Below are positions 404 through 17,893 of a stretch of 32,773 nucleotides of DNA, in pieces (the stretch's first letter is position 1; every line of letters starts with the position of its first letter). The stretch covers positions 1-32,773 of the forward strand of contig JBGAIN010000089.1 in assembly GCA_044225505.1 (NCBI GenBank), written 5' to 3'. The stretch comes from Limisphaerales bacterium. Lineage in GTDB: Bacteria; Verrucomicrobiota; Verrucomicrobiia; Limisphaerales; SIBE01. Position numbers and translations under genes: made by a program. The notes under the pieces were generated by a model that saw nothing but the letters and a program-made list of their open reading frames with translations, did no database searches and was not told the origin of the DNA.

Positions 404-1453
404 ATGGCTCACTCCCGGAGTCTCAAGTTCATTTCAGCGAGCGTGGCAGCTTTAATGCTGATAGGCCCCATGGGCCTTGCGGCGGACGTCTTAGCCAGCA
501 AACCTGCCATCGGAGACCGACGTTCGGTGCCGAAGGTTTTTCGCAAAAGCCTGCCAAACGGGCTCGAGGAGCTGAAGGCGATGGAAGGCCATATTCAAGG
601 GATTGTGCGAGAAGTCGCACCTGCGGTCATCTCAGTGCGCGTTGAAAACAATGTCGGGACTGCCGTCATCATTTCGACGAATGGCCTCGTATTGTGCGCT
701 GCTCACGTCTGTGGCGCACCTCATCGGACCGTTGAATTCACCTTTGCCGACGGGAGGATTGCGCGGGGCGAAACGCTAGGCACAAATCATGAGATGGATT
801 CTGGCCTGATGCGGATCACGGACCCAGGTCCTTGGTCCGCCGTAACACTCGCAAATCCAGACAGTCCAGAGGTTGGCGATTGGGTTCTCGCGCTGGGTCA
901 TCCTGGAGGGTTTGACGTTAACCGACCTGTCGTGGCTCGCCTCGGTAGGGTCATTGCCCTGGGCGAATTGTTACGCACAGATTGCACGTTAATCAGCGGA
1001 GACTCCGGCGGTCCGCTCTTTGACATGCACGGTCGCGTTGTCGGCATCCATAGTCGCATTAGCAAGTCGACGGCAGACAATTATCATGTGCCAATCGGAA
1101 CGTTTCTGGAAACGTGGGAGAGGTTAGTTCGTGGCGACAATTGGGGGTCTAAGCCAGCTCCTCAATGGTCGACGATCGGCGTTCGCGGTGTGGATGCCTC
1201 TCAAGGATGCCGATTGGAATATGTCCGCGACAATGGCCCAGCGGCAACTGCCGGGCTCCAAGTCGGTGACGTCGTGACCCAGGTCAACACGGAGACAATT
1301 ACCGACGCAGAAAGTTTCGAGCATTCCATCCGTCAACTGAGCCCTGGAGATGAAGCGGTGATTCGTTTGAGTCGCCAACAAACAGAACTTATCTTGCGCG
1401 TTAAGGCGGAGTTGAAGCCGAATTCTCCTCGTCGCTTCCGCTCGCCCAGGTAA
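404..1453 (+). CDS. HtrA/DegP-like S1C serine protease with C-terminal PDZ domain and signal peptide
   Basis: Intact triad motifs CAAHV (His), MDSG (Asp), GDSGGP (Ser). PDZ-like C-terminus (IGVRG...GPAATAGLQVGDVV). Hydrophobic N-terminal signal. Confidence 0.92.
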   Translation: MAHSRSLKFISASVAALMLIGPMGLAADVLASKPAIGDRRSVPKVFRKSLPNGLEELKAMEGHIQGIVREVAPAVISVRVENNVGTAVIISTNGLVLCAAHVCGAPHRTVEFTFADGRIARGETLGTNHEMDSGLMRITDPGPWSAVTLANPDSPEVGDWVLALGHPGGFDVNRPVVARLGRVIALGELLRTDCTLISGDSGGPLFDMHGRVVGIHSRISKSTADNYHVPIGTFLETWERLVRGDNWGSKPAPQWSTIGVRGVDASQGCRLEYVRDNGPAATAGLQVGDVVTQVNTETITDAESFEHSIRQLSPGDEAVIRLSRQQTELILRVKAELKPNSPRRFRSPR

Positions 1454-1466
1454 ACCTTCGATCATT

Positions 1467-2540
1467 ATGCCCCTTTCCTGCATTCCATTGCGTGTTCTGT
1501 TGCTTCTGGGGGGCCTGTTGCTCGCTCCGTCATCTTGGGCTGATCATCGTCGCCCACATCACGGTGATGAACTCGCAGAGCAAGATACCAAAGGTGGCAC
1601 CGCTTTCCTGCGAGTCTTTGGCCCAGCAACCGAGGGTGTGCGACGCTCAATCGTTCAATTTGAAATCGATGGTCGGAGCGTTGGTTTTGGCGCCGTCCTA
1701 GATGCGAACGGTGAAGTGATTACGAAGGCAAGCGAACTGACCTCCGGAAGCCTCACCTGCCGATTCACTGATCACGCAGAGTCTTTCTCGGCCAAGGTCG
1801 TCGCCATCGATGAAGACAACGATTTGGCCTTGGTCATTGTCCGCGCCCCTGGAATTAAACCGGTCGCGTGGGCGACAAACGATATTGCCATCGGCCAATG
1901 GGCCATCACTCCAGGCCTCGAACCGATTCCAGCCGCTGTCGGCGTCATCAGTGCTACACCGCGAAAAATTCTGCCGAAGCGTGCTTACCTGGGTATTCTG
2001 CCGGACTTCGGAGCCAAGTCGGCACGAATACGGGATGTCATGCCAGGTTTCGGCGCCGAAAAGGCCGGACTTAAAGCCGGTGACGTCATCTTGACGCTTG
2101 ACTCGAAGAAAATGAACAACGGCAAAGAATTGGTCGATGCCCTCAGGATTTATCGAGACGGGCAAAGCGTAAAACTCTCCGTCTTGCGTGGAGAAGAACA
2201 GCTGGAGTTTAGCATTCAGATGATGGTCCCAAAGCCGGAGCGGCCGGTTCGCGGAGTTGATCGCCAAGAGCGCATGAATCGCTTGGGGAGTCAGTTAAGT
2301 CGGCGCGCGGAAGGTTTTCAGCTGGCCATCCAACACGACTCGGTTCTACAACCTTGGCAATGCGGCGGCCCCCTGCTCAATCTCGAAGGTCGCGCCATCG
2401 GACTCAACATCGCGCGCGCCGGGCGAATAGCATCTTACGCTTTGCCTGCGGATCTCTTGCTGACGCTGGTCGACCGATTGAAGGAGCGGATGGAAGTCGC
2501 TGCTCAAATTGAAGCAGGAAAGGCTTCGCAACCCCATTGA
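1467..2540 (+). CDS. HtrA-like trypsin-fold protein with a PDZ domain inserted in the protease domain; catalytic His lost and Ser replaced by Cys
   Basis: ITKASE sits at the TxxH position, followed by NDLAL and GVISA. A PDZ (AYLGI...GAEKAGLKAGDVIL) follows, then the protease resumes (IQHD...QCGGPLLNLEGRAIGLN). Starts 13 bp after the previous gene. Confidence 0.85.
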   Translation: MPLSCIPLRVLLLLGGLLLAPSSWADHRRPHHGDELAEQDTKGGTAFLRVFGPATEGVRRSIVQFEIDGRSVGFGAVLDANGEVITKASELTSGSLTCRFTDHAESFSAKVVAIDEDNDLALVIVRAPGIKPVAWATNDIAIGQWAITPGLEPIPAAVGVISATPRKILPKRAYLGILPDFGAKSARIRDVMPGFGAEKAGLKAGDVILTLDSKKMNNGKELVDALRIYRDGQSVKLSVLRGEEQLEFSIQMMVPKPERPVRGVDRQERMNRLGSQLSRRAEGFQLAIQHDSVLQPWQCGGPLLNLEGRAIGLNIARAGRIASYALPADLLLTLVDRLKERMEVAAQIEAGKASQPH

Positions 2541-4285: not shown

Positions 4286-5092
4286 CTAGACCAAGTCCTG
4301 TTCCAAACGCGCTATTTCTTGGCTGACCAGTTTGCCGATCCGGTGCTTTGCCAGATAGACTTGGTTCCGCGTGACACCCAGGCGAGAAATGATTTCCTCC
4401 ATCGCGACACCTTTTGTCACATAAAGGAAATAGGCTTGGTACTGCTTTGGCTTCACCCGTCGCTTGACCCGTTCCAACGCAGCGTCATGGAGATTGTGTT
4501 TCCACTCGGCTTCGTAGATCTCGTCGACTTCCGCACTGCGCGGGTCTGGGATTCGCTCCGCCGTGGAAGTTCGGTGCGTTCCAGATTTCGTTTTTGGATT
4601 GTCCAAAGGCTCGCAATCTTTGACTCGCGCCCGGAACTGGTCGGCAATATGCCAACGCGTCGTGTGCAGCAGCCAACTCTTAAACGAACCGACGTTGGGA
4701 TCATACTGAAAACTCGGCATGTTTTTGGCCACGTGACAGAAAGTCTCCTGCACCGCGTCCTGAGCTTCTGGTTCGGTGAGGCCGGCACGGCGAGCAACGC
4801 TGTAAACCAGCCGCCGGTAAATGTCGTAGAACTCACGCCAACTCTCGTGATTACCGACATCCTTAACGCGAGCAAGCAAGCTAGCACGCGTGGCGATCGA
4901 CGGAAAAGATCGGCGATTCATAGGCCTATCTGGATCCACTGGAACACGCCTGTGACGAACCCATCTATGATGCTTCAGAATGGGCTGGTATTTCAAGCCT
5001 GGACCGCTGGGCTCAGTTGATTTTTCACCGGAGGGTGAGGGTGGCGTTCGCATAGTGGGCGTGTGTCGATCCATCCGCTTCTCCTGAGTCAC
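4286..5092 (-). CDS. ECF-type RNA polymerase sigma-70 factor (PVC type usually linked to Ser/Thr kinases)
   Basis: [41 protein letters not shown] (region 2) and a C-terminal HTH ([21 protein letters not shown]). Start is either GTG 5092 (GTGA overlap with the upstream stop) or ATG 4921. Confidence 0.9.
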
Positions 5093-6327
5093 TCGACAGT
5101 CACAGCAATCAGGAACGGAGCGGAATCAGCTTTTGAGGAACCAAAACTCAAAGAAGTCACCACGACGTCTGGAAGGGAATTCGTCCAGGTCGTATGGAAC
5201 AGGCGCAATAGCCGATTCTTCGCCTTTGCAGCGTCATTGACCCCCTCCCAGGCAATCTGGGCCTTTTCCGAACGGGGTTCATTAGGATCGAACCACCAGT
5301 CAAGAACGTCTTTCCCGTAAATGATCGGGGCATTTATCGCGGGGCGCTCTTGGTAATGTATTTGGTAGTAGCCTATCTCCTCCCCTGTCTTGGCCGAGTA
5401 AGCCGCACCGTGAAAGAAATGGATCTTTCGACATTTCTGGCCAACTCGGATGCCATCGACCTTATCGGGAAATGTTCCTGCAAATAGCTTGCCACTCAGT
5501 TGAATCAACCCATGCACGTCAAATTCAATATCGACTGGAATCAGGCGAATTCGCCCTTGCGGCAACTGCACCAGGTTGTTTCCAGGAATACCGGACGGTT
5601 GCCAGTCTTCGTTGAGTGACGAGGTATAGTGACTTCTGAGATCGATAAAGTAGCTCGGCAACTGTGGATCCCGAGCCAGAAGGCGTTCTGGCTGACGAGA
5701 AGCGCTGAGGGGTTGATTCGCAAACAACTTGCCTGGCAACAGATCGCTGAATTGCACAAAATCGACATAATTCTCTTCCCAATCTTCGCCGCTAAAGTAA
5801 ACGCGCCCTCCGAGGGACAAGTTCAGAATCGGCCGGTGTGCAAAGCAGCGAACAATCGGGACTTCGGCCGCTTTCAAACCCATTTGACCGACTTGCCGCT
5901 TTTTGTACTCCTGGACGGTTGTTTTCACCCCGTCCTGCAAGGCATACTCTGCGCCCGAGAACTCGTATCCATACGAGATCGGCAGGACTGGATCTGTGAA
6001 TACTTCGCCACGAACCCCATCGCGCCACGTGAAAAAATCGCGAGACTTTTCAACCACAGGGCAGATGAACTCTTTTGGATCGTCGATAAACTCGGGGTGC
6101 AAATCGGATAGCCACTTGGGAAGACACTTGTGCCTTCGTTGATATTCTACGAGAGCTTCATGAATCTTATTCAGGTGAACTTTGCACGCTGCTGCGTCGC
6201 TAGGGTCCCGGCTAATGGGCGGTTGCTTGGCGTCGCCAGTTTCCGCGGCCTGGGAAAACCCGCGCGACACCATCCACGCGCTCAGAAAAAGACACTGAAC
6301 AATCTGACTTTTGATCCTATTCATCAT
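5089..6327 (-). CDS. Secreted protein: signal peptide + pilin/DUF1559-like segment + C-terminal beta-rich domain of unknown function
   Basis: 412 aa ORF with SD-like AGGAAAG upstream and signal-like N-terminus (…RGFSQA). ACKVHLNKIHEALVEY...FICP resembles CMSNLKQL...YKCP of the prepilin protein. The C-terminal half is beta-rich and ends [10 protein letters not shown]. Confidence 0.75.
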   Translation of the reverse strand: MMNRIKSQIVQCLFLSAWMVSRGFSQAAETGDAKQPPISRDPSDAAACKVHLNKIHEALVEYQRRHKCLPKWLSDLHPEFIDDPKEFICPVVEKSRDFFTWRDGVRGEVFTDPVLPISYGYEFSGAEYALQDGVKTTVQEYKKRQVGQMGLKAAEVPIVRCFAHRPILNLSLGGRVYFSGEDWEENYVDFVQFSDLLPGKLFANQPLSASRQPERLLARDPQLPSYFIDLRSHYTSSLNEDWQPSGIPGNNLVQLPQGRIRLIPVDIEFDVHGLIQLSGKLFAGTFPDKVDGIRVGQKCRKIHFFHGAAYSAKTGEEIGYYQIHYQERPAINAPIIYGKDVLDWWFDPNEPRSEKAQIAWEGVNDAAKAKNRLLRLFHTTWTNSLPDVVVTSLSFGSSKADSAPFLIAVTVE

Positions 6328-6344
6328 AAGTTTCTGCTTTCCTG

Positions 6345-7091
6345 TTAACGGGGATCGGGAACCCGTTCACCTCGTCGCCGTTCCGTATTGATTGCGACTC
6401 CAGTCGGATGGATCCCGGCGATCTTCCAGCCGTGCTGCCGAATTGCCTCCCCGAGAAAAACGTCGTCTCCATGCCTTCGGAGCCGATAGTCTGGCCAATC
6501 AATCGCTCGGACGGCCGCAGACCGAATTAGCCAACAGCCTCCCAGAACAAAGATCCACCTCCCATCGCCACCGTTTTGGCCCCGGAAAAGAAACTCCCCT
6601 TTGCCACCCGGGCGCCAGGAGGGTGGTGGTAACCCGCGGTACCAAGATGCCGAGCGCACAAACTTGAGCACATCTTTGACCTCAGTAAACGCCATCGGAT
6701 GATCGCACTCTCCGAGTTCGCCCCACATGACCGTTTCTGCCGAAGAAGCCTCCGCCTCTCTCAGCCATCGAAGCCACGCCCCTGCATCGGTGATGAACGA
6801 ATCATCATCAAACCACCAAATATACTCCGTGCTCACTTGGGCGAAAAGTCGCCGCATCATCGGGCACTTGCTCAGATTCAAATCGCTGACGACGAGCTCA
6901 TCAATGCGATGCTCCACCTTGCTTTGACTCAGGAACTGCCGCGTCGGCTCACCGACCGCGTTTGCTCCAACGATTAGCTGGTAGGCCGATCGCGGCACGT
7001 TGTTCCAGATCGATGAAAGTACGCGTTCGGCTAAACGACAGTAATCGCCATAAACCAGAACGCAGATCGTCAAGGATTCAGAGCTCACCAT
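6345..7091 (-). CDS. GT-A fold (GT2-like) glycosyltransferase
   Basis: TICVLVYGDY first strand, EYIWWFDDDSF (DxD motif), GGCWLIR, and HGDDVFLG acidic motif. Start set at ATG 7091, 14 bp after the upstream stop; the ORF-track extension to 7226 overlaps the upstream gene. Confidence 0.8.
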   Translation of the reverse strand: MVSSESLTICVLVYGDYCRLAERVLSSIWNNVPRSAYQLIVGANAVGEPTRQFLSQSKVEHRIDELVVSDLNLSKCPMMRRLFAQVSTEYIWWFDDDSFITDAGAWLRWLREAEASSAETVMWGELGECDHPMAFTEVKDVLKFVRSASWYRGLPPPSWRPGGKGEFLFRGQNGGDGRWIFVLGGCWLIRSAAVRAIDWPDYRLRRHGDDVFLGEAIRQHGWKIAGIHPTGVAINTERRRGERVPDPR

Positions 7092-7105
7092 CGCTCTTAA
7101 AGGTG

Positions 7106-7729
7106 TTATGGGACAGTCACATGAGAGGAACTGGAGTGAGGGTTCCATTTGACAACGAATTTCACGCCTGTAATTCGAGCCGCAGCACCGGTGGGGTTTT
7201 CGATCACAGGATCCACGTAAAGCCATTTGATGACTCGGCCGTAGCCCGGTCCCCCGGGAGACGCCCCATTAGGAAACTCTGCATCGTCCAGCTCAGACAC
7301 GAAGTTAGCGTAGTCCATACGCGCTTGGCAGTAATCGGATTTCTCTTTTGCCTGATTAATCCGGTCGAGAAGCGCAATAATCTGTCGCAGCAAGAACGTA
7401 TAGAGCGTCTCGAGTCGTCGGTAGCCAGGCGCGCATTGGAGCAGCTTCTCGTTCGCCTTGAAATACGGACTGTCATCTTCAAGATGGCTGTAATCCGAAA
7501 GCGGATGCGGCACGAGGGTAGAGCCTTTCCCGCTGGGCGGTCCCGGATCTGTATTCGGTTTCTCTTCGAACTTCGCGGGAATCGGGCCAACCCGCGCCTC
7601 GGCCTTATTCCCTCTGGGAGCCGATCTCAAGAATTCTTCCAAGGTGGCTGGCGGAGACCAGACATAGATAGGAAACTTATGCTCTTCTTCGTGGGTATGT
7701 GCAGGTTTAGGCATACGTTTTGATTTCAT
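7106..7729 (-). CDS. Hypothetical protein B, ending in WNPHSSSSHVTVP
   Basis: Fills the gap between the two glycosyltransferases with overlapping or near-abutting junctions (alternative ATG 7714 gives an ATGCCTAA overlap). Shares a motif pattern with 8826..9353. Confidence 0.7.
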   Translation of the reverse strand: MKSKRMPKPAHTHEEEHKFPIYVWSPPATLEEFLRSAPRGNKAEARVGPIPAKFEEKPNTDPGPPSGKGSTLVPHPLSDYSHLEDDSPYFKANEKLLQCAPGYRRLETLYTFLLRQIIALLDRINQAKEKSDYCQARMDYANFVSELDDAEFPNGASPGGPGYGRVIKWLYVDPVIENPTGAAARITGVKFVVKWNPHSSSSHVTVP

Positions 7730-8822
7730 GATTAAGGGGTGATGCTTGACAGGCGTGCTTTCCCGGCGTGGGAGGTGGATTGCAGGTTAACGGCGGATTG
7801 GCGCCGCCCCGCTCCCAATCCGTGCGGCGGCGCAAAAACGGTTCGATCTCTGAAAATTGTAATGGCGACAACTGCGGCAAGCGGAATCCATCCAAGTAAA
7901 GCTCGACTTTCGCGACGACCTCCTCGGTTTTGATGTCAGCCATGCATCGCGGCAGGTTTTCGACCGTGTTCACGCAAAGAGCTTCTGGACGGTCATGCGC
8001 GTCTTCGTCTCCCAATGGCACGGAACGGGAACGCCAACAGCCACCGGTGGCGCAACAGGGCAATGTTCCGACGCGATGGAGGAACTGGTGGGTGGGGTAA
8101 GCTTCCCAGTGGGGGGACTCGCGACCGCCCGCAACGACTACACAGGGCCGTGATGGTGGAGCGTCAGGAGCCGGTTCCACCGCAGCCGCCAGATGCATCA
8201 GGAGAGTGACCGGGCAGAGCACGCCCTGCGCCGAATAAACCAGCCGAATTAGATCGCGAAGCCCGGTCCGAGATCGCAAATCAATGACTCCGTTCAATCC
8301 TGGATGATAGTGATGCGCTTCCCCAACTTGGACGAATAGCACACGCCCTCGGAGTTCATCCACAACCGATTGCCAACGGCGGGTATGCCACCACTTGATA
8401 GTGTAGTCATATTTGCCACCCGCAACGAGAATCCAATAAGGAACCTTCACCCCTGTGATCTCCTCCACCAAACTCGGAGCGCGCTTTTCGTCGTCCGAGA
8501 GGTGGATATCGCCCTTGAACAAGGTCGGCTGGAAGTTTAACCCAAGCTGTTCGTTGAGATATTCCGTGAACCCATGCAAGAAGTGTAGCGGCCGCCGATT
8601 GGATTGTTGGATTAGCGGGTAATGACAGCGGATTACCTCCGTTTGCTTCTCTTCCAGATCAAGCGCGGTGAGGTAAGGATTGTGACGCCACAGGTCGGGA
8701 CAGGATGTGCGAACATCCGTTTGAAAGCGCCTCGGGTACGCGGCATGAAGGTCTCGCACGGCCGCTGTTAGCATAACGATATCGCCGGGTGCCTGAAAGT
8801 TTGTGAGGATAAGTCGTCGCAT
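7707..8822 (-). CDS. GT9 (ADP-heptose heptosyltransferase-like) glycosyltransferase with Cys-rich C-terminal motif
   Basis: GT9 hallmarks: PGDIVMLTAAVRDL, NPYL, KWW..RRWQSVV, DLRSRTGLRDLIRLV, TLLMHLAAAV, PCVVV. C-terminal PCCATGGCW...LC...PRCM..I. Confidence 0.85.
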   Translation of the reverse strand: MRRLILTNFQAPGDIVMLTAAVRDLHAAYPRRFQTDVRTSCPDLWRHNPYLTALDLEEKQTEVIRCHYPLIQQSNRRPLHFLHGFTEYLNEQLGLNFQPTLFKGDIHLSDDEKRAPSLVEEITGVKVPYWILVAGGKYDYTIKWWHTRRWQSVVDELRGRVLFVQVGEAHHYHPGLNGVIDLRSRTGLRDLIRLVYSAQGVLCPVTLLMHLAAAVEPAPDAPPSRPCVVVAGGRESPHWEAYPTHQFLHRVGTLPCCATGGCWRSRSVPLGDEDAHDRPEALCVNTVENLPRCMADIKTEEVVAKVELYLDGFRLPQLSPLQFSEIEPFLRRRTDWERGGANPPLTCNPPPTPGKHACQASPLNHEIKTYA

Positions 8823-8825
8823 GGA

Positions 8826-9353
8826 TCAACGCGACTCGCGCGAAAAAGACGGCGGGACAATTTCCTCGGGTCCTTCAACCTCGACGACGAAGCGCTCGAG
8901 GGAGATGTCTGCCGGCAAAGGAACTGGAGCAGCCGCCGTCAGTGTCACCCATTCGGAACGCTGACGCCCACTGGCAAACTGATTCCCGAAACTGCAAACT
9001 AGATTGACGGCCATTCCATCCTTCATTTGTGGTTCCACAATCACTCCGAAGGGAGCATAAAAATCCTCCAGCTCATCGCGGCGTCGAAGCGATGCCTCAA
9101 TGCGCCTTAACTGAGTTTGCTCCTGCACAAATCGAGTGTCCGCTGGCAACAGATTGCGAACCGCGACCAGCGCACGATACTCGCGATTTAGCTCATAGTA
9201 CGCGATTGCGAACTCAAGCAAGATCCTCCCGTTGCGATCACTAAGATCGACCATCTGCGGGAGAGCTTGGCCGTTGCACGCCGGGAAGCACTCCGGAGCA
9301 AATCCCGGTTCAGTTCTCGGATCGTTCGAAGGATTAGGATGTGCATTCATCAT
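8826..9353 (-). CDS. Hypothetical protein A
   Basis: 175 aa ORF with 3-bp gaps to both neighbours. Helical core with the ELEDFYAPFG motif. Confidence 0.75.
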   Translation of the reverse strand: MMNAHPNPSNDPRTEPGFAPECFPACNGQALPQMVDLSDRNGRILLEFAIAYYELNREYRALVAVRNLLPADTRFVQEQTQLRRIEASLRRRDELEDFYAPFGVIVEPQMKDGMAVNLVCSFGNQFASGRQRSEWVTLTAAAPVPLPADISLERFVVEVEGPEEIVPPSFSRESR

Positions 9354-9356
9354 CGT

Positions 9357-12300
9357 TCATTGTGGCACCTTACGGGCTGCGGACGGTCCAGCTTTATCCA
9401 TTCGGCGGATAGACTCCGCCAGAATCGCATCGTCAGGGTTAAGCCGCAACGCCTGATCGAAGTCACGGCGCGCCCGAGCTTTGTCTCCAAGCCATTGATA
9501 CGCTCGCCCACGGTCAAAGTGCATCGTGGCTTGCTTCGTCGGCGATAAAAGCGTCTCGCCATCTAAAACCTGGGAAATCTGTTCCACCATGTGCCAAACC
9601 CGGGGGCTTTCAGCGTCGACTTCCGCCGGTTGCACCTCGACTGCCGGGGGCTTTTCCGTCCGCATCGGAAATGCCGCGAACCGGCCATTCAATCTCAGTT
9701 TTTCAAGACCGCGTTGAAGGTGAGCCAAGTCGAACACCTGGATAATTTGATCACTCGTCAGGGCCGCTAGCCGGGTGGCTCCGGCATTCAAACAAAGGCC
9801 GGTCACAGGCCGCCGGTGCGGACTTTCTATGGTAGCGAGTTCCGTCGCTTGGAAGGGATCTTCCAGAACGAGATCAAAAAGCTTCACAATGGTCGGTTCG
9901 ACCGACACTGCAAGCAAGGTGTGATCTGATTGCGACAGCTTGGCGAGAGCGAAGGGCCCCCCCTGACCACTGGGACGCGACGCGGAGATTTCCAGGTCCG
10001 CCTGTCTCCACGTCTCTAATTCTAGAAATCGAACGCGTTTGTCGAGATGCGTTGCGATCCAGCGACCGTCCGGGCTAAAGCTGTAAGCACGCATACCCAC
10101 AAAAGCCTTTCGCAACGTACTGCGAGTGCTGTCGATGTCCCAAAGTTGAAGCTCTTGTCCTTTTTCACTGAACAAAGCCAACCAATCGGCCGTTCGGTTT
10201 AGAGCTAAAGACTGAAAATTACCCCGGCAAGGCAAAACTCGATCAGCAAACGGAGCGCCCAAAGCTGTCAGGTGAACGTGATCGTCGTGCAGGACAGCCA
10301 TCGATCGAGTTCCTTCACTAAACGAGGCGGAATTCAAACCATACGGCAGGCTCAGGCACTCGGGTTGACCAAGATTCACAACTCCGAGGCTCCCGTCACT
10401 GTGGTTCAGCCTTGGCCATCGATAAGCGCCCGAGGCAGTAGTCGCGATCAGATCGCCATGAACGAGATCAAGAAAAGCCGTTCGCGCGGTCTTAGCTGGA
10501 ATTGACGCCGCTTCTGTTCCCGTCGCTGAGTCCCATAACGTGACTCCGAGCTCGGTGCTCGTCACGAGAAGGCGGCCATCTCCGCCAAAGCCAAAACTGG
10601 TCACGGGCGACGGCACCCGGGACGGTCGGAAAACGGTATACTCCGGTGAGTAATAAACGCGCCAACGCTGAACGACTCCTCCAAACGCGGTATGAATCAG
10701 CGTATCACCCTCGTCACTGAACTCCAATCTCCCTTTGGTCAATCCCTCAAACTCAGCTGTCACTTGCCGAAAGGTCGCTAGAGTCCAAAGCCGGAGGGTC
10801 ATGTCGTCTCCCAGACTTGCTAGGAGCTCACCTTTGGGGCTGAACGCAATTCCACGAATGACGGCCGCGTGGGCTTGAGGAAGTTCCCTTCGTTTTAAGG
10901 GGTCCAAGTCCCAAAGGTAAATGTCGTCATGCTCAGCTGCGATCGCCAGTTGCTGACCCGTTGGATGCCAGGCGACGGCCACCCCTGAACTTCGCTGCGG
11001 CAAACTTACCGTCGTTTGGCTGTAGAGGTCGTAAACAACCGCGTGATTGCTGTTGCGACTCACTTCGGCCAAGCGACTTCCTGTGGGGTCAAAACGCAGG
11101 GTTGTGAACTGTCTTGGCTCCTCAATGTGGGCCTGCTCGGACAGGGTGGCGATGCGCTTACCGTCACTCAATCCGAACACCCAGATCACGCCTTCCCGAA
11201 GCCCTACAGCGAGCTTTGAAGAGTCGGCGCTGAAATCGACGGCGTTAGCGGCAATGCTGTTGGTCACAAGAAGCACGGGCTTGGATAACTGGCAGTCCCA
11301 GACCGCGAGTTGATTTCCACCGTCTTCCTCCTCTTGGACCGCCAGGAATCGTCCGTTTCTGCTCAAGACCACGTTTGCCAGCGCTCCGGCAGGAGGACGC
11401 GTGGAGACAATGCGGCCGGTCCGAAGGTCTACGATGTCGATCCGACCTGACGCATCGGCTTGCGCCAGATGAGTCGCATTTGCACTCAGTGCACACGCGG
11501 TAAACCCGGGCAGCAACTGGGTGATGTCAGGGTTACGTTCCAAGTCGATTAACGACATGCTCGCGATGGCCTCGTCCCGCAAGTCCGACTCTCGAGCAGC
11601 TTCGCCGCGTGCGCGCTCTATCGCTTTGAGACTGTCAACCCTCTGCCCAGCGCGTCCGCTATTGCGCAACATTTGTGCCTGGACGAAATAGGCGTGAGCC
11701 AACGCGATCTGCTGTTTCCGGTTGCTGGCCTTAACCGCTCGGAACGCGAGGACGCCAGTAATAGCGACCGCGGTGATGACCAATGAACTGATGGCCATCG
11801 CTCTACCAACACCGCGCCGGAACGCTTGCCGTTGGCGACGCAGCTCGGCTTCCGGAAGATTGGCGCGAACCCATTCGGCGTCAAAGACCCGCTTGTAAAT
11901 GCGGTTACGTTCGAGTAAACGTCCCTCCGCCACCCGGACAATGCCAGAAAGCCTGAGCAGACTGACGAGCGGATCCAATTCGTCATCGACCACTTGCCTT
12001 CCGCGCCAAACGCGCAGATAAAAATCCAGCAAATCGGCTCGATCTGCGTCATTACGCAGAAGCCGCTCTCGCACGAACACCAAATTATCATCTCGCTCCC
12101 GCGCCCGGTGACTGAAAAAAAGGCCGGCACAAAGTTCGTCAGCCAGGGCGGCCCCACGGGTTTTCGTAATCCCGGCGGAACTGCCTTTCCCTTGCAGAGC
12201 TTCGGCAGTGACCCGGCAAAGCTTCTGCGTCAAGTAGGGATGGCCATCGGTCCAGTATAGAATTCGACTGAGGAGTTCGGTCGCCTCGCAAACACTTATG

Positions 12301-13037
12301 GCCGACTGGTCCATTTGAAGCCCTCGCGCCAACGGCGCGGCTTCTTCTGGGGTGAAATCGTTGAGCTCGATACGGCGCCCGATATTAAACGGCGTCGTCC
12401 GCGTGTCCCGGATAAGGTCGGAAGGCGACGCCACTCCAAGGAGGCAAAACGTTAGTGCGCAGTACACCTTGTCCAAACCGCGGTGGTTGTAGCACTCTCG
12501 AATCGCAGAAAAAAACTCGTCCGTTGGAAATGGCAAACTCCGCACGAAGTCGATCTCGTCGACGAAGATGACCAGGCGAACTGAGGTCGGCTTTGGACCT
12601 GGTTGAAGCGTGCCATTGTCATCGGAAGAAAACTGTTTGGAGAGTTCACTCTCGGCAGCTTGGACGACGATGTGACGCAAGGCCTTCATCAGGCGATGCA
12701 ACGGTCCCAAGTGCGAATTAGACTGCCACAACGCCTCGAGTTCATCTTCCAGGTCCAATTCTTGACCCAGCATGTCCAAAAGGCCGTAATACCATTGATC
12801 TGGCGTGACGTTCTGGCCGCCCACCGCAGTGAGATCCAAAGCCGCTACTTTCATCCCGGCCGCACGCAAGCGCGTGGCCGTTCGCACCATGAGAGACGAC
12901 TTCCCCATTTGCCTCGCCGTCAAAACGTAGCAGAATTCGCCCTCCAGCAACCCTTGCAGGAGGTCCTTGTCCGCCCGCCTTTCGACATAGGAAGGAGCAT
13001 CCGATTGCAAGGAACCGCCTGTGACGTAAAAGTTCAT
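9357..13037 (-). CDS. AAA_35 (STAND-like P-loop NTPase) - hydrophobic helix - WD40 beta-propellers - C-terminal TPR
   Basis: MNFYVTGGSL..SYVERRAD start, Walker A TARQMGKSS, Walker B VIFVDEID, TPFNIG, WTDGHPYLTQ. Hydrophobic AISSLVITAVAITGVLAF. Many WD40-like repeats (AVAWHPTGQQLA, IAFSPKGELLASLGDDMTLRLW, FSPDGRWIA). TPR HFDRGRAYQWLGDKARARRDFDQALRLNP. Start set at ATG 13037. Confidence 0.9.
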   Translation of the reverse strand: MNFYVTGGSLQSDAPSYVERRADKDLLQGLLEGEFCYVLTARQMGKSSLMVRTATRLRAAGMKVAALDLTAVGGQNVTPDQWYYGLLDMLGQELDLEDELEALWQSNSHLGPLHRLMKALRHIVVQAAESELSKQFSSDDNGTLQPGPKPTSVRLVIFVDEIDFVRSLPFPTDEFFSAIRECYNHRGLDKVYCALTFCLLGVASPSDLIRDTRTTPFNIGRRIELNDFTPEEAAPLARGLQMDQSAISVCEATELLSRILYWTDGHPYLTQKLCRVTAEALQGKGSSAGITKTRGAALADELCAGLFFSHRARERDDNLVFVRERLLRNDADRADLLDFYLRVWRGRQVVDDELDPLVSLLRLSGIVRVAEGRLLERNRIYKRVFDAEWVRANLPEAELRRQRQAFRRGVGRAMAISSLVITAVAITGVLAFRAVKASNRKQQIALAHAYFVQAQMLRNSGRAGQRVDSLKAIERARGEAARESDLRDEAIASMSLIDLERNPDITQLLPGFTACALSANATHLAQADASGRIDIVDLRTGRIVSTRPPAGALANVVLSRNGRFLAVQEEEDGGNQLAVWDCQLSKPVLLVTNSIAANAVDFSADSSKLAVGLREGVIWVFGLSDGKRIATLSEQAHIEEPRQFTTLRFDPTGSRLAEVSRNSNHAVVYDLYSQTTVSLPQRSSGVAVAWHPTGQQLAIAAEHDDIYLWDLDPLKRRELPQAHAAVIRGIAFSPKGELLASLGDDMTLRLWTLATFRQVTAEFEGLTKGRLEFSDEGDTLIHTAFGGVVQRWRVYYSPEYTVFRPSRVPSPVTSFGFGGDGRLLVTSTELGVTLWDSATGTEAASIPAKTARTAFLDLVHGDLIATTASGAYRWPRLNHSDGSLGVVNLGQPECLSLPYGLNSASFSEGTRSMAVLHDDHVHLTALGAPFADRVLPCRGNFQSLALNRTADWLALFSEKGQELQLWDIDSTRSTLRKAFVGMRAYSFSPDGRWIATHLDKRVRFLELETWRQADLEISASRPSGQGGPFALAKLSQSDHTLLAVSVEPTIVKLFDLVLEDPFQATELATIESPHRRPVTGLCLNAGATRLAALTSDQIIQVFDLAHLQRGLEKLRLNGRFAAFPMRTEKPPAVEVQPAEVDAESPRVWHMVEQISQVLDGETLLSPTKQATMHFDRGRAYQWLGDKARARRDFDQALRLNPDDAILAESIRRMDKAGPSAARKVPQ

Positions 13038-13101
13038 CGCCCAAACTCGGTGAATGAACCACCGGCAATCCACTCGCATCCGCCAAGAGCGTCTCTCGCC
13101 T

Positions 13102-15012
13102 TCATCGCAGAGTCTGTCGCAGGTAGCTAGCGTAAAGCTCGCACCGCGGCTTTGCTTCGACAGCTGATTCACCCTTCAAAACACCAGCGCTGCGCAGCCG
13201 GTAGAAGCTCTCTGGACTTGGGCAAGGCTGGCCCTGCAACACTCGTTCCACCGCTTCCACCAACACTGGATCTTGCCGCAGCGCAAAACGCAATCGTCGC
13301 AAGTGCGCTCCGAAAATGCCGTCATCCCGCCCCACTAACAGTTCGAACGCCTCGAAATTGAAATGTTGCGTTACCAACTCGTGAAGTCCGCGTCGCGTCA
13401 AATAGGGATGGCCCCCCAAAAGTTGGTAAAACTGAGCCACCTCTTCAGGCGTACGCAGCGGATTGCCATAGCGAAAGTTCAGTTCATTCACTTGCGCCAT
13501 ATCGAAGTCGTCCAAGCTCAGTTGAGTCCCGACGTTGAACGGCGATTGGTTCAGGTCCGTGATGAAAAGGTGAGCCTCCGTCGCATAGGCAATCGCAAGC
13601 GTCAGCTTAGCCCACGGCCCATTCGGATCTAACGCGCGTTTGTTAAACCAAGCGCGAAACATTCCAAAAACCTGCCCTCCAAAACTTGTGCTGAACAAGC
13701 GATCGACTTCGTCTAACCCCCAGAAGAGGCGGGTAGGAACGCTTGGAATGGCCTGTCGCCGCATGAACCGCTCAAAATTGTTGTTCGGGCTCCGCCGATC
13801 ATCCCAGCTCTTGGCCAAGGTTTCATCCAACTCCAAGCCATCTTCCAGGCCGCAAGCTAACGCCAGATAAAAATCTTTCAGCGAATGCAGATCCGATTCG
13901 TTAAACTCCTGAATATCGGTCAGAACGACCCGGGCCTTTTCCTCGCGAGCTTGCTGCAATGCTCGAGCCAACAGCGATGTTTTCCCCATTTGGCGCGCGC
14001 CCTTCACCAAAATGATAGAGTCCTTACGAATCAGGGCATCTTGAAACTCCGCATCCGCTGGTCTCTCAATGTAAAACGCTGAATCGAGAGGCACAGCCCC
14101 GCCGATCGCTTCGAGTTGAGGCTCCTCCTTGGGTTCGGGCGGTCCTTTTTCGCTCCACAAAGCGCGGAACCATCGTTTCCCCACGCGACTTTCACTCTCC
14201 GTGGTCTGACGAATTTTATTCAGCTCCTCGAACATATCTCGAGCTGACTGAAAGCGGCGGCGAGGTTCCGGATCGCACGCACGCAAGATCAGATCATTAA
14301 ATTTCCGCAGCGCTTGGATGTCCGTTCCGTCCGGCAGGTAAGTTGGCAAATCCGGAAACGAGAGCCGATCTTTGCCTGTGCTAATCTCGTAAAGCACTTT
14401 CCCGAGACTGTACAGGTCCGTGCTGGGACTGCTAGTGCCTTTCGTCGGCATGTAACCCTCGGTCCCAAGCACGGTCGCTTGACGACCTCGATTCGTCACC
14501 AGTCCAACATCCGCCAACTTGGCCTTCCCTCCAACAAAGACAATGTTCGACGGCTTAATATCTCGGTGAATCAATCGGCGATGATGCAGACAACCTAGAG
14601 CCGCTGTCAGCGAAAGGCCAATCTGCAAGCACTCGGGAAATGGTAGTTTTCCTCGTTTCTCAATTTCTGCACTGAGCGTCAGTGGTTGGTAGGTATCCGG
14701 AATTATGTCCGGACGTCGCCGCACGTCATCTGCCAGCTCCATGACGTAGTAGAAATAACCGTCCCGGTCGTTTCGACCGATGTGCAAAATAGCAACGAAC
14801 CCATCATGAGATCGAGAGATCGGCTCAAAATGGCGTATCCCCTGGAACTCCTGTTCGTACGGGCGCTCGTCCTTGAAGCTACGTCGATAGACGACCTTGA
14901 TCGCACGAAAATGCCCCAGGACGTTCTTGGCGAGCCAAACCACTCCGAAGCTGCCATCCCCGATAGGGCGAAGCAACTCATACTCAGGAACGCTGAGCGG
15001 TTCGATGCTCAT
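13102..15012 (-). CDS. Hanks-type Ser/Thr protein kinase fused to a C-terminal AAA_35 NTPase domain
   Basis: Kinase motifs GDGSFGVV, RAIK, YVMELAD, HRDIKPSN, ADVGL, DLYSLG. AAA_35 from GGAVPLDSAFYIERPAD with Walker A GARQMGKTS, Walker B LDEVD, SPFNVG, GGHPYL. Confidence 0.92.
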   Translation of the reverse strand: MSIEPLSVPEYELLRPIGDGSFGVVWLAKNVLGHFRAIKVVYRRSFKDERPYEQEFQGIRHFEPISRSHDGFVAILHIGRNDRDGYFYYVMELADDVRRRPDIIPDTYQPLTLSAEIEKRGKLPFPECLQIGLSLTAALGCLHHRRLIHRDIKPSNIVFVGGKAKLADVGLVTNRGRQATVLGTEGYMPTKGTSSPSTDLYSLGKVLYEISTGKDRLSFPDLPTYLPDGTDIQALRKFNDLILRACDPEPRRRFQSARDMFEELNKIRQTTESESRVGKRWFRALWSEKGPPEPKEEPQLEAIGGAVPLDSAFYIERPADAEFQDALIRKDSIILVKGARQMGKTSLLARALQQAREEKARVVLTDIQEFNESDLHSLKDFYLALACGLEDGLELDETLAKSWDDRRSPNNNFERFMRRQAIPSVPTRLFWGLDEVDRLFSTSFGGQVFGMFRAWFNKRALDPNGPWAKLTLAIAYATEAHLFITDLNQSPFNVGTQLSLDDFDMAQVNELNFRYGNPLRTPEEVAQFYQLLGGHPYLTRRGLHELVTQHFNFEAFELLVGRDDGIFGAHLRRLRFALRQDPVLVEAVERVLQGQPCPSPESFYRLRSAGVLKGESAVEAKPRCELYASYLRQTLR

Positions 15013-15052
15013 GGCTAACAACGTGACACCCCTGGTTGAGCGTCAAAACTCA

Positions 15053-15094
15053 GTAACGTTACGCACTTTATTCGAGCTGTCACTGCAATTCCAA
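15053..15094 (-). promoter_or_regulatory. Candidate sigma70-like promoter (TTGGAA-N18-TAAAGT) with a perfect 10-bp palindrome GTAACGTTAC near the predicted start site
   Basis: Read directly from sequence, 41-82 bp upstream of the kinase ATG. Function is unverified. Confidence 0.3.
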
Positions 15095-15378
15095 GATCCT
15101 GCCCCGGTCCGTCCATTTACTCTCAAAGCCGACAAAACTTTCCCAAATGTGATCGGCCCCTTACGCCGCCCGCAATGGCCCTTTCCTATAACTACGCGGC
15201 GGAAACCCCGGATCTTTCAGGTTTCTGCAAAAATCTTGCGGTGGACTCCCGCCCCCGCCCTGCCGCGTCTCGAGGCAAATTCGAACCGAGGATCGCGGCC
15301 TAGTTCAATTTCAGCCGGCTGCATCTCCATGAAACGACCCTGGTGGCGAATTCAAAACTATTACCACGCCGCTGATTC

Positions 15379-16653
15379 TCACGGAGCAACCGTGGTTAAC
15401 ACGCCGAAAAATGTTTCGATATGTTTCATCGCGTTGGTCCGCCCAGCGTCGTCGATGGCACTATTCGCCACCCACTGCTCGATTTGGGCGCGACGGGAAA
15501 TAAAACGGTCTTTTCCGGCCTTGAAAAAAGAGACCATGGTGCGGTCCTTGATCAGCGAAACGCGATAGAGAGCTTGTCGATCCAATTCCGGAAGCTCTGG
15601 ATGGTAGTCGTGCGGAGCTGACGCCCGAACCTCACCCGTGACCCACGAGGCGAGATCGAAATCGCCCGCCACGGGGATCAATTGTCCATTCGGAAGCTCA
15701 ATCACCTCCGTATTTCGAACGTTGGCTCCCGTCAGTGGGAGTTCGTAATCCCAGTTCCCAAGCAATGCGTGGAATAGTTCCATGTCCACGACCAACTGTT
15801 CGTCAAACTTAGGGTTCTCTAGCCTGGCAATCTCGGCATCACTAAGAGCACGGGCACCATGATGTTCCGCGACAACCTCGATATCCTCCAGAACGAGCGC
15901 ACTCCGGGTCAACTGCCATCCCGAGTCAAGAGCATTGGTGCCTGAGACGTCTCGATACTCGATTCGCGCACGGCGGACTCGGGGTGACACGAACTCCAGA
16001 AGCCTCATCACTTCATAGGCCGTTGCTTCGCGATAGGTCGCTCGCTCATCGCGCAACCGACCGACATTTCCACGTCCCCCCTCCGCACAGTGCGTCCCAA
16101 TCTTGATCTCCCGCGCGTCAAAGAAAGGCGTGCCGAGACGGTCTTCCTTGGACACTTTAAACTTTATCTTGGGAAAGGGGCACTCTTGGAGGCTTGAATT
16201 CCCCCGCACGCGCAAGTTTACGGGCAAATCGTAACCAGCAAACTGTAGTCTTCCATCAAAGTTGGGCTTCTCCCGTCGTGGGGGAAATATGCCGTCGGGC
16301 GTGCCAGCCAACGCGAGTTCAAAATGCTGTTGGAACGGCCCTGTCAAAGTCCAGGCAACGACTGAGTTGGTTTCAAAGATACTGGTTGGACTGTCGTCCC
16401 GTGTCCTAAAAAACTGCATTTGGCGACTCGGCTCGACCGGCAAAGGGCTTGCTCCAGTGGTCAGCCCGACCCATGGTCCAGTCGCATGGTCGGATAACTC
16501 CAGCGCTCCGCTAAACGTCAGGATGATTGTGCCGCTGCCATCACGTTGGATTTTGACATCCGGCGTTCCAGCTATCGCGCTTTGACCACGGACCAGAAGT
16601 AAGCCGCAGATCGCGACGGGGAGTGAAATTCGGGTGAATCGATTCAAGCGCAT
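15379..16653 (-). CDS. Secreted CotH-like (atypical kinase fold) protein with a short N-terminal beta module
   Basis: Signal peptide (…GQSAIA). CotH-like motifs VRGNSS...KIKF, YREATAYEVMRLL...PR, LGNWD...N, IPVAGDFDLA. Confidence 0.65.
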   Translation of the reverse strand: MRLNRFTRISLPVAICGLLLVRGQSAIAGTPDVKIQRDGSGTIILTFSGALELSDHATGPWVGLTTGASPLPVEPSRQMQFFRTRDDSPTSIFETNSVVAWTLTGPFQQHFELALAGTPDGIFPPRREKPNFDGRLQFAGYDLPVNLRVRGNSSLQECPFPKIKFKVSKEDRLGTPFFDAREIKIGTHCAEGGRGNVGRLRDERATYREATAYEVMRLLEFVSPRVRRARIEYRDVSGTNALDSGWQLTRSALVLEDIEVVAEHHGARALSDAEIARLENPKFDEQLVVDMELFHALLGNWDYELPLTGANVRNTEVIELPNGQLIPVAGDFDLASWVTGEVRASAPHDYHPELPELDRQALYRVSLIKDRTMVSFFKAGKDRFISRRAQIEQWVANSAIDDAGRTNAMKHIETFFGVLTTVAP

Positions 16654-16993
16654 GACGTCAATTGGATAAAAATCGATGGTGTTCAGGCCGCGGCAATGGA
16701 CTGTGTTACCGTGGTCGCTTCTTTAAGCTATGCCAACGTGCCTTGGGTGCCTGGGTTGGTAAATAGAACCAACGGTCCACTGTCGATCTCGTTTCCCAGC
16801 TTGGTTTAGGCTTCCGAATCAGTCTGGTGAAAAGAAGCCCGTGGGACACGAAAAGCGTCGATTGTCAGCTAAGACTCAGGTTGTCGTGTCAAACGGCATC
16901 GGCAACGGGCCTCTGACTGCAGGCGGTTGGAGAGATCCACGCCGCAGCGCGATTTGGGATGGCTCCCGTTTAACGGCAGCGTAAGGCCCGGTT

Positions 16994-17743
16994 CTAATCT
17001 GAGGAACGTCTGTAAGCCCCGCGGACCTGTTGGATGAGGGTCGTAAAGGTCGCCGCCATGATCTTGAGGTCAAACCACAAGCTCTTGTTCCGAGCATAGT
17101 AGACGTCCAGGTCGATCATCTGGCTAAAGGTCGTTCGGTTCTTCCCGCTCACCTGCCAAAGTCCCGTGAGTCCAGGTAAGGTCTCAAAACGAGCATACTG
17201 CCAGGCCCGATAACTCAGCAATTCATGCGGCGTGCAAGGTCGAGGGCCGACCAAGCTCATCTCGCCGCGCGCGACGTTAATGAGTTGAGGCAGTTCGTCA
17301 AGGCCTGTGGCTCGGAGCATCCGACCGAATCGGATTAGGCGCGGGTCGTTTCGTTCGTCCAACTTCGTCATCGGAACGTCTGACTGGACCAAAGAATCGA
17401 CATATTGCTGGTGCGACAGGGTGTCACAACCCACATGCATCGTTCGAAACTTAAGGCAGATGAACCCCTTACGCCGGTAGCCAACTCTCTCCTGACGAAA
17501 AAAGATCGGTCCAGACGAAACACACTTGATGATCATGGCAATCGCCAGCATCAGAATGAGCACCCCAGGCAGGCCAAGAACCAGGCAAGTCAGATCAAGT
17601 GCGCGTTTCCAAGGCAGCGCGTTCAAAATCCCTGTTACCGCCCCTTCCCGGCCCTCGTGCGAAAGTTCAATCGACGACGAAGCCGCCTTCGAGTGAGGCA
17701 GCTTGGCGGATCCCATACCCAGCACGTTTGGGGAAGCGTTCAT
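16994..17743 (-). CDS. Bacterial sugar transferase (priming polyprenyl-phosphate glycosylphosphotransferase, WcaJ/WbaP C-terminal-domain type)
   Basis: KRALDL, single TM helix, FFRQERVG, KFRTM, DPRL, LDELPQLINV, GEMSLVGPRP, PGLTGLWQVSG, LDVYY. Start uncertain (17743 or 17779). Confidence 0.93.
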   Translation of the reverse strand: MNASPNVLGMGSAKLPHSKAASSSIELSHEGREGAVTGILNALPWKRALDLTCLVLGLPGVLILMLAIAMIIKCVSSGPIFFRQERVGYRRKGFICLKFRTMHVGCDTLSHQQYVDSLVQSDVPMTKLDERNDPRLIRFGRMLRATGLDELPQLINVARGEMSLVGPRPCTPHELLSYRAWQYARFETLPGLTGLWQVSGKNRTTFSQMIDLDVYYARNKSLWFDLKIMAATFTTLIQQVRGAYRRSSD

Positions 17744-17893
17744 GGCAGCGTTACAAACCTGTGCATTTCGGTCCAACAAATCATTATGTCCTATAGAGCC
17801 TACGGGCGCAGAAAGCCGAATCTTTCACTAAGAATCAGCAAAGTTCCAACGCCCGGGGTTCCTGGCTCGCGTGACATACTACTCCGGTCAGCC

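Follow-up and report, generated by a model that had tools for sequence, protein, structure and literature searches.

A candidate signal-controlled glycosylation unit joining a kinase, a sensor and an ECF sigma factor in a Limisphaerales bacterium

The eight-gene cluster

The contig JBGAIN010000089.1 of a Limisphaerales bacterium from sludge (GenBank assembly GCA_044225505.1) was analysed over positions 1 to 32,773, a stretch here called the window. Between positions 4286 and 15021 it carries eight co-directional open reading frames (ORFs) on the minus strand, which encode, in this order, a Ser/Thr kinase, a sensor with a transmembrane (TM) helix, a protein of no recognised family (orphan A), a glycosyltransferase of the GT9 fold, a further protein of this kind (orphan B), a GT2-like glycosyltransferase, an exported protein and a sigma factor of the extracytoplasmic function (ECF) class. 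With starts placed by homology, the junctions measure 61, 3, 3, −23, 14, 17 and −4 nt, essentially the operon-like spacings given in the initial annotation, which had been made from the sequence alone. The −4 nt overlap before the ECF gene is a property of its long ORF only; the conserved ECF core begins at M58 (position 4921). Contigs from DNA runs of two other studies tile the cluster, one of them spanning 8991–17000 with 11 differences. As contigs of independent DNA runs cover the cluster, its arrangement is no assembly artefact.

The first gene (13102..15012, minus strand) encodes a cytoplasmic protein of 639 aa in which a Hanks-type Ser/Thr kinase (Pkinase, E = 2e-21) is fused to an AAA_35 P-loop NTPase (E = 5.7e-73; both Pfam). 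The G-loop, VAIK-type Lys, HRD and Walker A and B motifs can all be read intact in its sequence, and no TM helix was predicted in it. The sensor gene (9357..13040, minus strand), whose 1271 aa ORF is open up to 13172, specifies a cytoplasmic AAA_35 domain, one TM helix (residues 415–433), one or more WD40-type propellers and C-terminal TPR repeats that are extracytoplasmic by topology. Walker A (GKT/GKS) and Walker B (D-E-x-D) motifs are present in both AAA_35 proteins, as in other P-loop NTPases, and the two AAA_35 domains are 24% identical (E = 1e-16). These domains have no NCBIfam match and no solved relative by sequence; against PDB sequences they returned only P-loop matches to KaiC (best E = 0.3), and the literature found on AAA_35 consists of unrelated papers. 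Near a solo kinase-AAA_35 gene in one relative (L134:1419-3944, minus strand) lies a gene for a Pkinase-TIR-DUF4062 protein, a conflict-type architecture unlike that of the window.

The GT9-like protein (7707..8822, minus strand; 371 aa) is soluble and has a cluster of invariant or near-invariant cysteines in its C-terminal half (C256, C257, C262, C283 and C293). It scores 18.4 bits against Pfam PF01075 (E = 1.4e-3), below the gathering cutoff of 22, and has no NCBIfam match; eight of its relatives score 23.1–31.1 bits. In a structure model of pLDDT 84, the closest solved folds are 3tov (Z = 23.8), WaaF (1psw, 21.2), TibC (4rb4, 20.3) and WaaC (6dfe, 19.4), and other GT-B folds reach at most 11. 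The predicted WaaC/WaaF-type GT-B fold, and with it the assignment to GT9, is secured by this comparison of a modelled structure. What had been called a GT9 enzyme from the sequence therefore keeps that name on the strength of its fold, with Z of 19.4–23.8 to four solved GT9 enzymes, and not on its Pfam score. The family is large, with at least 4009 clusters at E ≤ 1e-30, whose members are automatically named 'ADP-heptose:LPS heptosyltransferase' (LPS, lipopolysaccharide) or 'hypothetical'.

The GT2-like enzyme (6345..7091, minus strand) shows homology from M46 of a 293 aa ORF that is open up to 7226. It matches Glyco_tranf_2_3 at 29.9 bits, above the Pfam gathering cutoff of 27, and its orthologs in L040/L041 are 61–62% identical. 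No TM helix was predicted in either transferase or in either orphan, and the topology shows both transferases to be cytoplasmic and the propeller of the sensor to face out. Elsewhere in the genome there are six canonical GT9 genes and a GmhA-like protein below its cutoff. ADP-heptose is plausibly available as a donor, because a homolog of HldE domain I is found above cutoff in the same genome.

Orphan A (8826..9353, minus strand; 175 aa), a candidate adaptor or acceptor, belongs to no family in Pfam, NCBIfam or PADLOC and has no usable Protein Atlas match; its own family comprises 215 cluster representatives at E ≤ 1e-3 among 1.84 billion (alignment A2, 10 sequences). Orphan B (7106..7729, minus strand; 207 aa) carries an invariant C-terminal KWNPH-SSS motif and was found in the window, L040/L043, L041, L045 and L048 only (alignment A3, 5 sequences). 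It has no Pfam family, and its best Protein Atlas score, 0.85, is to unrelated families. The initial annotation had made paralogs of the two orphans, a relationship that comparison does not uphold (BLASTP E = 1.8; profile-profile probability 0.2%).

The exported protein (5089..6327, minus strand; 412 aa) has an N-terminal hydrophobic helix, an alpha/beta domain with conserved Cys (alignment A4) and a C-terminal beta-sandwich. It had been described as a secreted pilin-like fusion; the hydrophobic helix and the two domains were recovered, but for the pilin likeness there is only a weak 24-residue match (E = 0.044) to a neighbouring H-X9-DG pilin-like protein. No Pfam match was found even at E = 10, nor any in NCBIfam, and its model (pLDDT 82) gave AziU2/U3 (E = 4.5e-5) and then CBM-like sandwiches as best PDB fold matches, with no functional lead. 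The last gene (4286..5092, minus strand) is a 268 aa ORF in which a Ser/Thr/Pro-rich N-terminal extension precedes the conserved core. Matches to Sigma70_r2 (E = 2.3e-11, Pfam) and TIGR02937 (66.7 bits, cutoff 42.9, NCBIfam) place it among the ECF (group IV) sigma factors. Pfam, NCBIfam and TM prediction thus agree with the domain calls first made for this protein, the kinase-AAA_35 and AAA_35-TM-WD40-TPR proteins and the GT2 enzyme.

Recurrence of the partnership in three architectures

When 201 genomes of the window's order were searched with the GT9-like protein, matches were found in 62, mostly at 53–66% identity, and in none of the three from the window's own family. Twenty of these loci, chosen for long contigs and not by content, were fetched; a kinase match lies beside the GT9 homolog in 14 and a match to the window ECF in nine. 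Their kinases are Pkinase-WD40 proteins of 900–1480 aa, and two further ECFs belong to PF07638 (Pfam). A scan of a database with one genome per GTDB species returned at least 527 GT9 relatives, and the best 80 were annotated with local profiles; two of the 80 loci are the same contigs as two of the 20 order loci. These 80 relatives are 56–66% identical to the window protein, and their titles name Verrucomicrobiota, Acidobacteriota, Planctomycetota, Proteobacteria (including the cultured Paraburkholderia phymatum and P. silviterrae) and others. Label-free clustering of their neighbours, the larger clusters being shadow frames of the GT9 gene, identified the kinase/WD40 family as the commonest real neighbour (18/80 loci); orphan A was found in 8, the 412 aa family in 7, and ECFs and GT9-methyltransferase fusions in 6 each.

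Three architectures were distinguished. In type I, that of the window, kinase-AAA_35 and AAA_35-TM-WD40 genes are followed by orphan A, GT9, in some cases orphan B, the 412 aa and GT2 genes in either order, and the ECF gene. This rare architecture, in which kinase and sensor are separate and each has an AAA_35 domain, was found on four other contigs of the same order (L133, L045, L044 and L048) and spans at least four GTDB families. L133 contains AAA_35-TM-WD40, orphan A, GT9, the 412 aa protein, GT2 and ECF, preceded upstream by an AAA_35 ORF that is truncated where the contig stops. In L045 an AAA_35 ORF in convergent orientation is 57% identical to the AAA_35 half of the window kinase-AAA_35 protein and runs off the contig before any kinase half could be seen; contig ends also truncate L044 and L048. 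The sensors of L133 (1269 aa) and L045 (1119 aa) are orthologs of the same build as that of the window. Type II comprises kinase-TM-WD40, orphan A, GT9, GT2 and the 412 aa protein (L049, L054, L094 and L098, and in part L024, L035 and L039), and homologs of the 412 aa protein sit in the GT9 loci of both type I and type II contigs. Type III consists of an ECF, an 850–907 aa fusion of GT9, Mannosyl_trans3 and a third domain, which in L042 is an FkbM methyltransferase, and kinase-TM-WD40. Shorter fusions are found in L079 (GT9 and Mannosyl_trans3, 642 aa) and L034 (GT9 and GT34, 590 aa). Across the family the partner of the GT9 enzyme varies (GT2, Mannosyl_trans3, GT34, a second GT9 or methyltransferases), in keeping with an initiating step that is conserved and an extension that is not.

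In a FastTree phylogeny of 84 GT9 domains with SH-like support, the type I loci and L043 group with the window in a single clade (support 95), whose sister is type II (91); type III lies elsewhere. The window kinase domain, by comparison, is 44–54% identical to those of the kinase-TM-WD40 proteins that adjoin GT9 fusions in type III, and only 23–29% identical to those of type II. The kinase and ECF of the window are thus closest to type III partners, while its glycosyltransferase block is of the orphan A type. To judge from these relationships, signalling and transferase modules have been reshuffled yet kept together, and this is the strongest argument for functional coupling. Homologs of the glycosyltransferase/orphan block repeatedly adjoin kinase, WD40, AAA_35 and ECF genes in several gene orders, so the neighbourhood comparison proposed in the initial annotation speaks for a functional unit. 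In 9 of 10 related kinase-WD40 proteins scanned, one TM helix lies between kinase and propeller. As kinase and sensor are one polypeptide in these relatives, we infer that in the window, where the two are split, the covalent link would give way to pairing between the AAA_35 domains, which are distantly related to each other.

Kinase-linked loci always have a gene for a small protein immediately before the GT9 gene. In types I and II this protein is invariably orphan A, which precedes the GT9 gene in 9 of 81 scanned loci and, from a separate search, in L024, L039 and L041 (L040 is the same contig as L043). In type III it is a micro-protein. There the spacer between the ECF and fusion genes is 440–655 nt and contains two conserved micro-ORFs. 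Right after the ECF gene in 10 loci (L025, L026, L028, L029, L031, L042, L055, L062, L064 and L079), the first encodes an amphipathic helix peptide, (K/R)R-x-IL-(R/K)KL-x-x-R, that could be a small sigma-binding regulator. The second, present in 14 fused-type loci, encodes a PG[FY]SP[KR]P peptide of 48–79 aa (in one locus the ORF, counted from the first ATG, is 155 aa long); the peptide includes a basic stretch, and most copies end in a Ser/Thr/Pro-rich tail. Its ORF is in every case located 100–350 nt upstream of the GT9-Mannosyl_trans3 fusion gene (e.g. L025:10566-10772, L031:9238-9396, L062:1506-1694 and L064:4511-4693, with ten more loci), and it was not found in the window. Short, Ser/Pro-rich and encoded beside a soluble transferase, this peptide is a candidate dedicated acceptor.

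Four of the related loci (L076, L077, L091 and L052; approximately 6.8–15 kb), from P. phymatum, P. silviterrae, a Rhodopila metagenome-assembled genome (MAG) and an alphaproteobacterial MAG, have an approximately 60%-identical GT9 gene beside DUF6519. Three of the four also contain a second GT9-methyltransferase fusion, the partner in L052 being a methyltransferase domain only, and an eCIS_core protein is present in L077 and L091. In the accessible part of a 2026 report, DUF6519 is the tail-fibre anchor domain of extracellular contractile injection systems, and the word 'glycosyltransferase' does not occur in that part (PMC12923769). The proteobacterial loci hint at glycosylated injection-system parts.

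The ECF sigma factor, its predicted promoter and the surroundings

The window ECF is 56% identical to that of L133 and 37–48% identical to the ECFs of 12 fused-type loci (alignment A5). A Hanks-type kinase in the neighbourhood, the feature of the kinase-linked groups ECF43, 59, 61, 62, 217 and 283, accompanies the window ECF and its orthologs in L025–L029, L031, L034, L042, L055, L062, L064 and L079. No anti-sigma family was matched by any cluster protein in Pfam or NCBIfam; in the fused-type loci the conserved micro-ORF follows the ECF gene. According to the accessible text on the group, ECF43 lacks the acidic DAED motif (PMC8999054). The ECF43-type switch, in which DAED is lost and a phosphorylatable Thr stands in its place, was not found here; 13 of 14 clade sequences keep a Thr or Ser at the position three residues ahead of the acidic sigma-2.2 motif.

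A candidate promoter dyad was derived from the regions upstream of orthologous type III ECF genes in relatives, where TTGAAAGA-N15/16-CGTA occurs in five of nine loci against a maximum of two after shuffling. Just upstream of the ECF gene and on its strand, TGAAAG-N15-18-CGTA is present in 10 of 14 type III loci with an ECF; a second, divergent copy was found in eight type III loci and a third, after the kinase gene, in four. Over 1.69 Mb of loci there are 35 matches against 12.9 expected. No conserved dyad was found upstream of the micro-protein gene in fused-type loci, where the best candidate (3/14) equalled shuffles. The window has exactly two matches against 0.13 expected, a number reached by one of 100 shuffles, and both are intergenic and correctly oriented. 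One, TGAAAGAT-N15-CGTA (15193..15219, minus strand), lies 180 nt upstream of the kinase ATG; the other (17801..17827, minus strand) lies 22 nt upstream of an ORF for a Bac_transf priming transferase (16994-17779). We read these two dyads as predicted ECF promoters with no defined regulon, because enrichment across the genome is mild and the other downstream genes are mixed.

Extra dyad copies in fused-type loci precede genes for receiver-domain proteins of 120 to 658 aa (L025:11958-12320, L031:15919-17826, L064:1148-3124 and L062:1-493), those of L031 and L064 being 59% identical, and in these loci the sigma factor may also feed a two-component branch. On contig C253 of G000, a dyad (TTGAAAGAT...CGTA) at 18294 (plus strand), upstream of 18409-20205, precedes a subtilase and B12-radical-SAM pair.

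The initial annotation had noted the lack of flippase, polymerase and nucleotide-sugar genes, and the cluster itself indeed holds no exopolysaccharide genes of this kind; 2 kb upstream, however, is the Bac_transf gene (E = 1.6e-56). Because neither this gene nor a 424 aa ORF (15379-16653) has a homolog in any fetched relative locus, both are placed outside the conserved unit, and it may be in this genome alone that Bac_transf shares its regulation with the cluster. Farther upstream, a plus-strand gene (18257-22228) encodes a 1323 aa fusion of CheB methylesterase, CheR methyltransferase, several PAS domains and a HisKA_2/HATPase kinase, and is followed by three receiver-domain genes (22238-24256). 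At 27504-30694 (plus strand) a YfiR/HmsC-like gene precedes one for a CHASE8-HAMP-PAS-HisKA protein that ends without a recognised ATPase domain, and after the latter comes an overlapping 142 aa ORF with no family. On the other side of the cluster, 401-2540 (plus strand) holds two tandem genes for HtrA-like trypsin-PDZ proteases, the second with a weaker protease match.

A proposed circuit and its alternatives

As the same partnership recurs in many related bacteria, the cluster is likely to be a hitherto undescribed unit for glycosylation under the control of a signal. We lean, if only slightly, towards an explanation in which the eight genes form an auto-induced sensor/kinase/ECF circuit whose operon carries a cytoplasmic two-step glycosylation cassette. 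The WD40/TPR domain would read an extracytoplasmic cue, which would cross the membrane to the AAA_35 domain of the sensor, and this domain would form a pair with its AAA_35 counterpart on the soluble kinase. The kinase would then phosphorylate the ECF, as in published ECF-kinase pairs, and the ECF would fire the promoter upstream of the kinase gene, yielding more ECF together with the transferases, orphans A and B and the exported 412 aa protein. Finally, the GT9-fold enzyme would add a first sugar and the GT2 enzyme a second.

The two enzymes are likely to glycosylate a dedicated small protein or the exported protein. The small protein directly upstream of the GT9 gene lends indirect support to the suggestion, made at the outset, that dedicated small proteins are glycosylated, and a small protein (A or B) is the foremost of several candidate acceptors, none of them by itself more likely than not. 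A lipid-linked or LPS glycan is a slightly weaker candidate, as is some other molecule, and the exported protein, modified before export, is weaker again. It is more doubtful still that the locus represents cytoplasmic protein O-glycosylation within a kinase/sigma circuit, in which the GT9 enzyme would start a short, sometimes methylated glycan on small proteins (orphan A or B, or the PG[FY]SP[KR]P micro-protein in relatives) and the glycan and the Hanks kinase would together set ECF output.

Several observations weigh against the proposed circuit. The chain of steps is inferred. The RNA data consist of a few contigs of 150–260 nt from one sludge metatranscriptome, possibly DNA carry-over, which is too little for any claim of transcription or of an operon. 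In 62 of the best 80 loci no kinase gene lies closer than 6 kb to the GT9 gene; as most of these 80 loci have the GT9 gene without kinase or ECF, the function of the family is not bound to the two signalling partners. Relatives also contain other kinase-AAA_35 genes, which lack a neighbouring AAA_35 sensor, so that the pairing is confined to this locus type among the loci seen. The ECF of L044 is of another group (21% identity), and the sigma-2.2 acidic motif is largely kept in the ECF clade (E-A-Q-D or E-A-E-D, unlike ECF43), which makes the predicted dependence on phosphorylation uncertain. Genome-wide, there are 49 loose dyad matches against 8–39 for eight scrambled words, and the genes downstream of the 23 TGAAAGA-type matches are heterogeneous and form no coherent regulon. 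Nor does fold comparison distinguish a protein acceptor from LPS, as the Z scores of TibC, WaaF and WaaC differ by no more than 2 units; neither Foldseek nor VIA-align could separate LPS-type from protein-type GT9 enzymes.

Classical GT9 enzymes act on the LPS core, and the cluster could instead serve envelope-glycan remodelling, the ECF/kinase pair controlling GT9 and GT2 enzymes that decorate the LPS core or an undecaprenyl-linked glycan, with the small and exported proteins as accessories. The nearest solved folds include WaaF and WaaC, the automatic names of relatives point the same way, and the same dyad stands before the polyprenyl-phosphate sugar transferase 2 kb upstream. A swappable second transferase (GT2, Mannosyl_trans3 or GT34), often followed by a methyltransferase, is typical of side-branch tailoring, and polymyxin resistance is under EcfP/PknT control in what is accessible of PMC8999054. 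We nonetheless consider this explanation unlikely: neither the cluster nor the probed loci of relatives contain a flippase, ligase or polymerase, every fetched relative locus lacks Bac_transf, and the six canonical GT9 genes are already present elsewhere in the genome. Some approximately 60%-identical relatives are titled as LPS-free lineages (Acidimicrobiia and Limnocylindrales), although MAG labels may be wrong, and the proteobacterial gene is found in contractile-injection-system loci beside DUF6519. In eukaryotes O-GlcNAc gates phosphorylation, and a comparable glyco/phospho cross-talk would have the transferases modify the ECF in its Ser/Thr/Pro-rich extension or linker, or else the kinase or sensor, so that glycosylation gates phosphorylation. 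The minimal recurrent set, kinase-TM-WD40 with GT9 and a second transferase, with or without ECF, is in keeping with this, as are the transferase gene that sits between ECF and kinase in fused-type loci, the long ECF ORFs of the window and L133, each with a Ser/Thr-rich extension and a 4 nt overlap with the gene before it, and the Thr/Ser before the acidic motif. It is decidedly improbable, however, as the GT9 family is common without kinase or ECF and the extension is unconserved in sequence and missing from most fused-type ECFs.

The initial annotation had likened the paired AAA_35 and WD40 proteins to NLR (nucleotide-binding leucine-rich repeat) receptors. Read as a defence system, they would form a STAND (signal transduction ATPases with numerous domains) switch that detects an invader, with the kinase and transferases as effectors. 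A P-loop NTPase joined to repeats, a patchy spread (62/201 order genomes, 0/3 in its own family) and approximately 60% identity across phyla, which suggests horizontal spread, would suit a conflict or defence function, and the kinase domain matches PADLOC kinase models such as PD-T4-6 (E = 3.4e-29) and mad6. The PADLOC-DB 2.0 matches are to a generic kinase domain only, however, and 10 of the 11 proteins submitted, seven of them in the cluster, had none. With a TM helix between NTPase and repeats, the latter lie outside the cytoplasm; AAA_35 is missing altogether from the majority of related loci; and the surroundings are no defence island but consist of chemotaxis-type, two-component and protease genes. 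An ECF with a promoter fits transcriptional signalling. We therefore regard the defence framing as very unlikely. Chance juxtaposition of unrelated genes can almost be dismissed: verrucomicrobial genomes hold many kinases and ECFs, with 5–24 matches to the kinase-AAA_35 query per relative, but the linkage is kept through three architectures, fusions and order changes, and the window type by itself spans no fewer than four GTDB families.

The proposed circuit resembles known systems in part. Pairs of the ECF62 type were reportedly first described by Jogler et al. in 2012. In the accessible part of the ECF classification, ECF62 of Planctomycetes has a neighbouring Ser/Thr kinase with one TM helix and WD40 repeats and no anti-sigma factor (Casas-Pastor et al. 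2021, PMC7826278). The window similarly has an ECF, a Hanks kinase and TM-WD40 sensor, no recognisable anti-sigma gene and a host of the PVC (Planctomycetes–Verrucomicrobia–Chlamydiae) superphylum, but it separates kinase and sensor, adds AAA_35 to each and contains a GT9-fold cassette. That group description, as far as accessible, names no glycosyltransferase, and Glyco_transf_9, heptosyltransferase and Mannosyl_trans3 are absent from the available part of the supplement (PMC7826278). Compared with the same group description, the clear dyad of the window's ECF clade differs from the ECF62 promoter motifs, published as 'not conserved'. Direct sigma phosphorylation is reported, in the portions available, for EcfP/PknT of Vibrio parahaemolyticus and EcfK/PknS of Xanthomonas citri (PMC8999054, PMC13147305); in their working model a membrane kinase activates the ECF by phosphorylation with no anti-sigma factor, and by analogy the same may hold here. 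From the same partial sources, ECF43 pairs differ in their sensors and have no transferases, while the window clade keeps E-A-Q/E-D.

With TibC/AAH (4rap, 4rb4) the window enzyme shares the GT9 fold (root-mean-square deviation 2.8 over 261 residues), a soluble cytoplasmic location and a Cys cluster in the C-terminal half; TibC has an iron finger. Unlike in TibC/AAH, there is no autotransporter among the cluster proteins or the neighbours scanned as an adjacent substrate, and no relation at the sequence level, the family profile having no match among PDB sequences at E ≤ 1. WaaC and WaaF share the fold, and ADP-heptose synthesis is plausible in the window's genome, but the window protein lies below the Pfam GT9 cutoff, outside any LPS-core locus and in a genome with other, canonical GT9 genes. 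STAND and NLR-like NTPases likewise join a P-loop NTPase to repeats, here in two paralogous NTPase modules; in the window, unlike in these, a TM helix intervenes, the kinase 'effector' is on a second protein and AAA_35 is without a solved relative. ECF-kinase pairs are thus known, and we found no mention of a GT9-type cassette inside such a unit in the searchable literature, which misses most subscription journals. With PADLOC matching the generic kinase domain only, and this literature naming no such gene set, the view that no named system corresponds to the cluster stands.

Kinase-dependent ECF sigma factors are a recent and thinly studied mode of signalling, and in PVC bacteria we know of neither their inputs nor their outputs. 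This locus family offers a defined output in its two-enzyme cassette, a candidate promoter, candidate small-protein substrates and a natural 'split' sensor kinase. It also draws attention to a very large cross-phylum family of GT9-fold enzymes that is routinely auto-named 'LPS heptosyltransferase', and whose contexts in kinase/sigma units, contractile-injection loci and methyltransferase fusions argue for a non-LPS role. Should O-glycosylation within the kinase/sigma circuit prove true, it would be a prokaryotic counterpart of the interplay between O-GlcNAc and phosphate, and the action of the same enzyme family on contractile-injection-system parts in Proteobacteria would extend the protein O-glycosylation reading.

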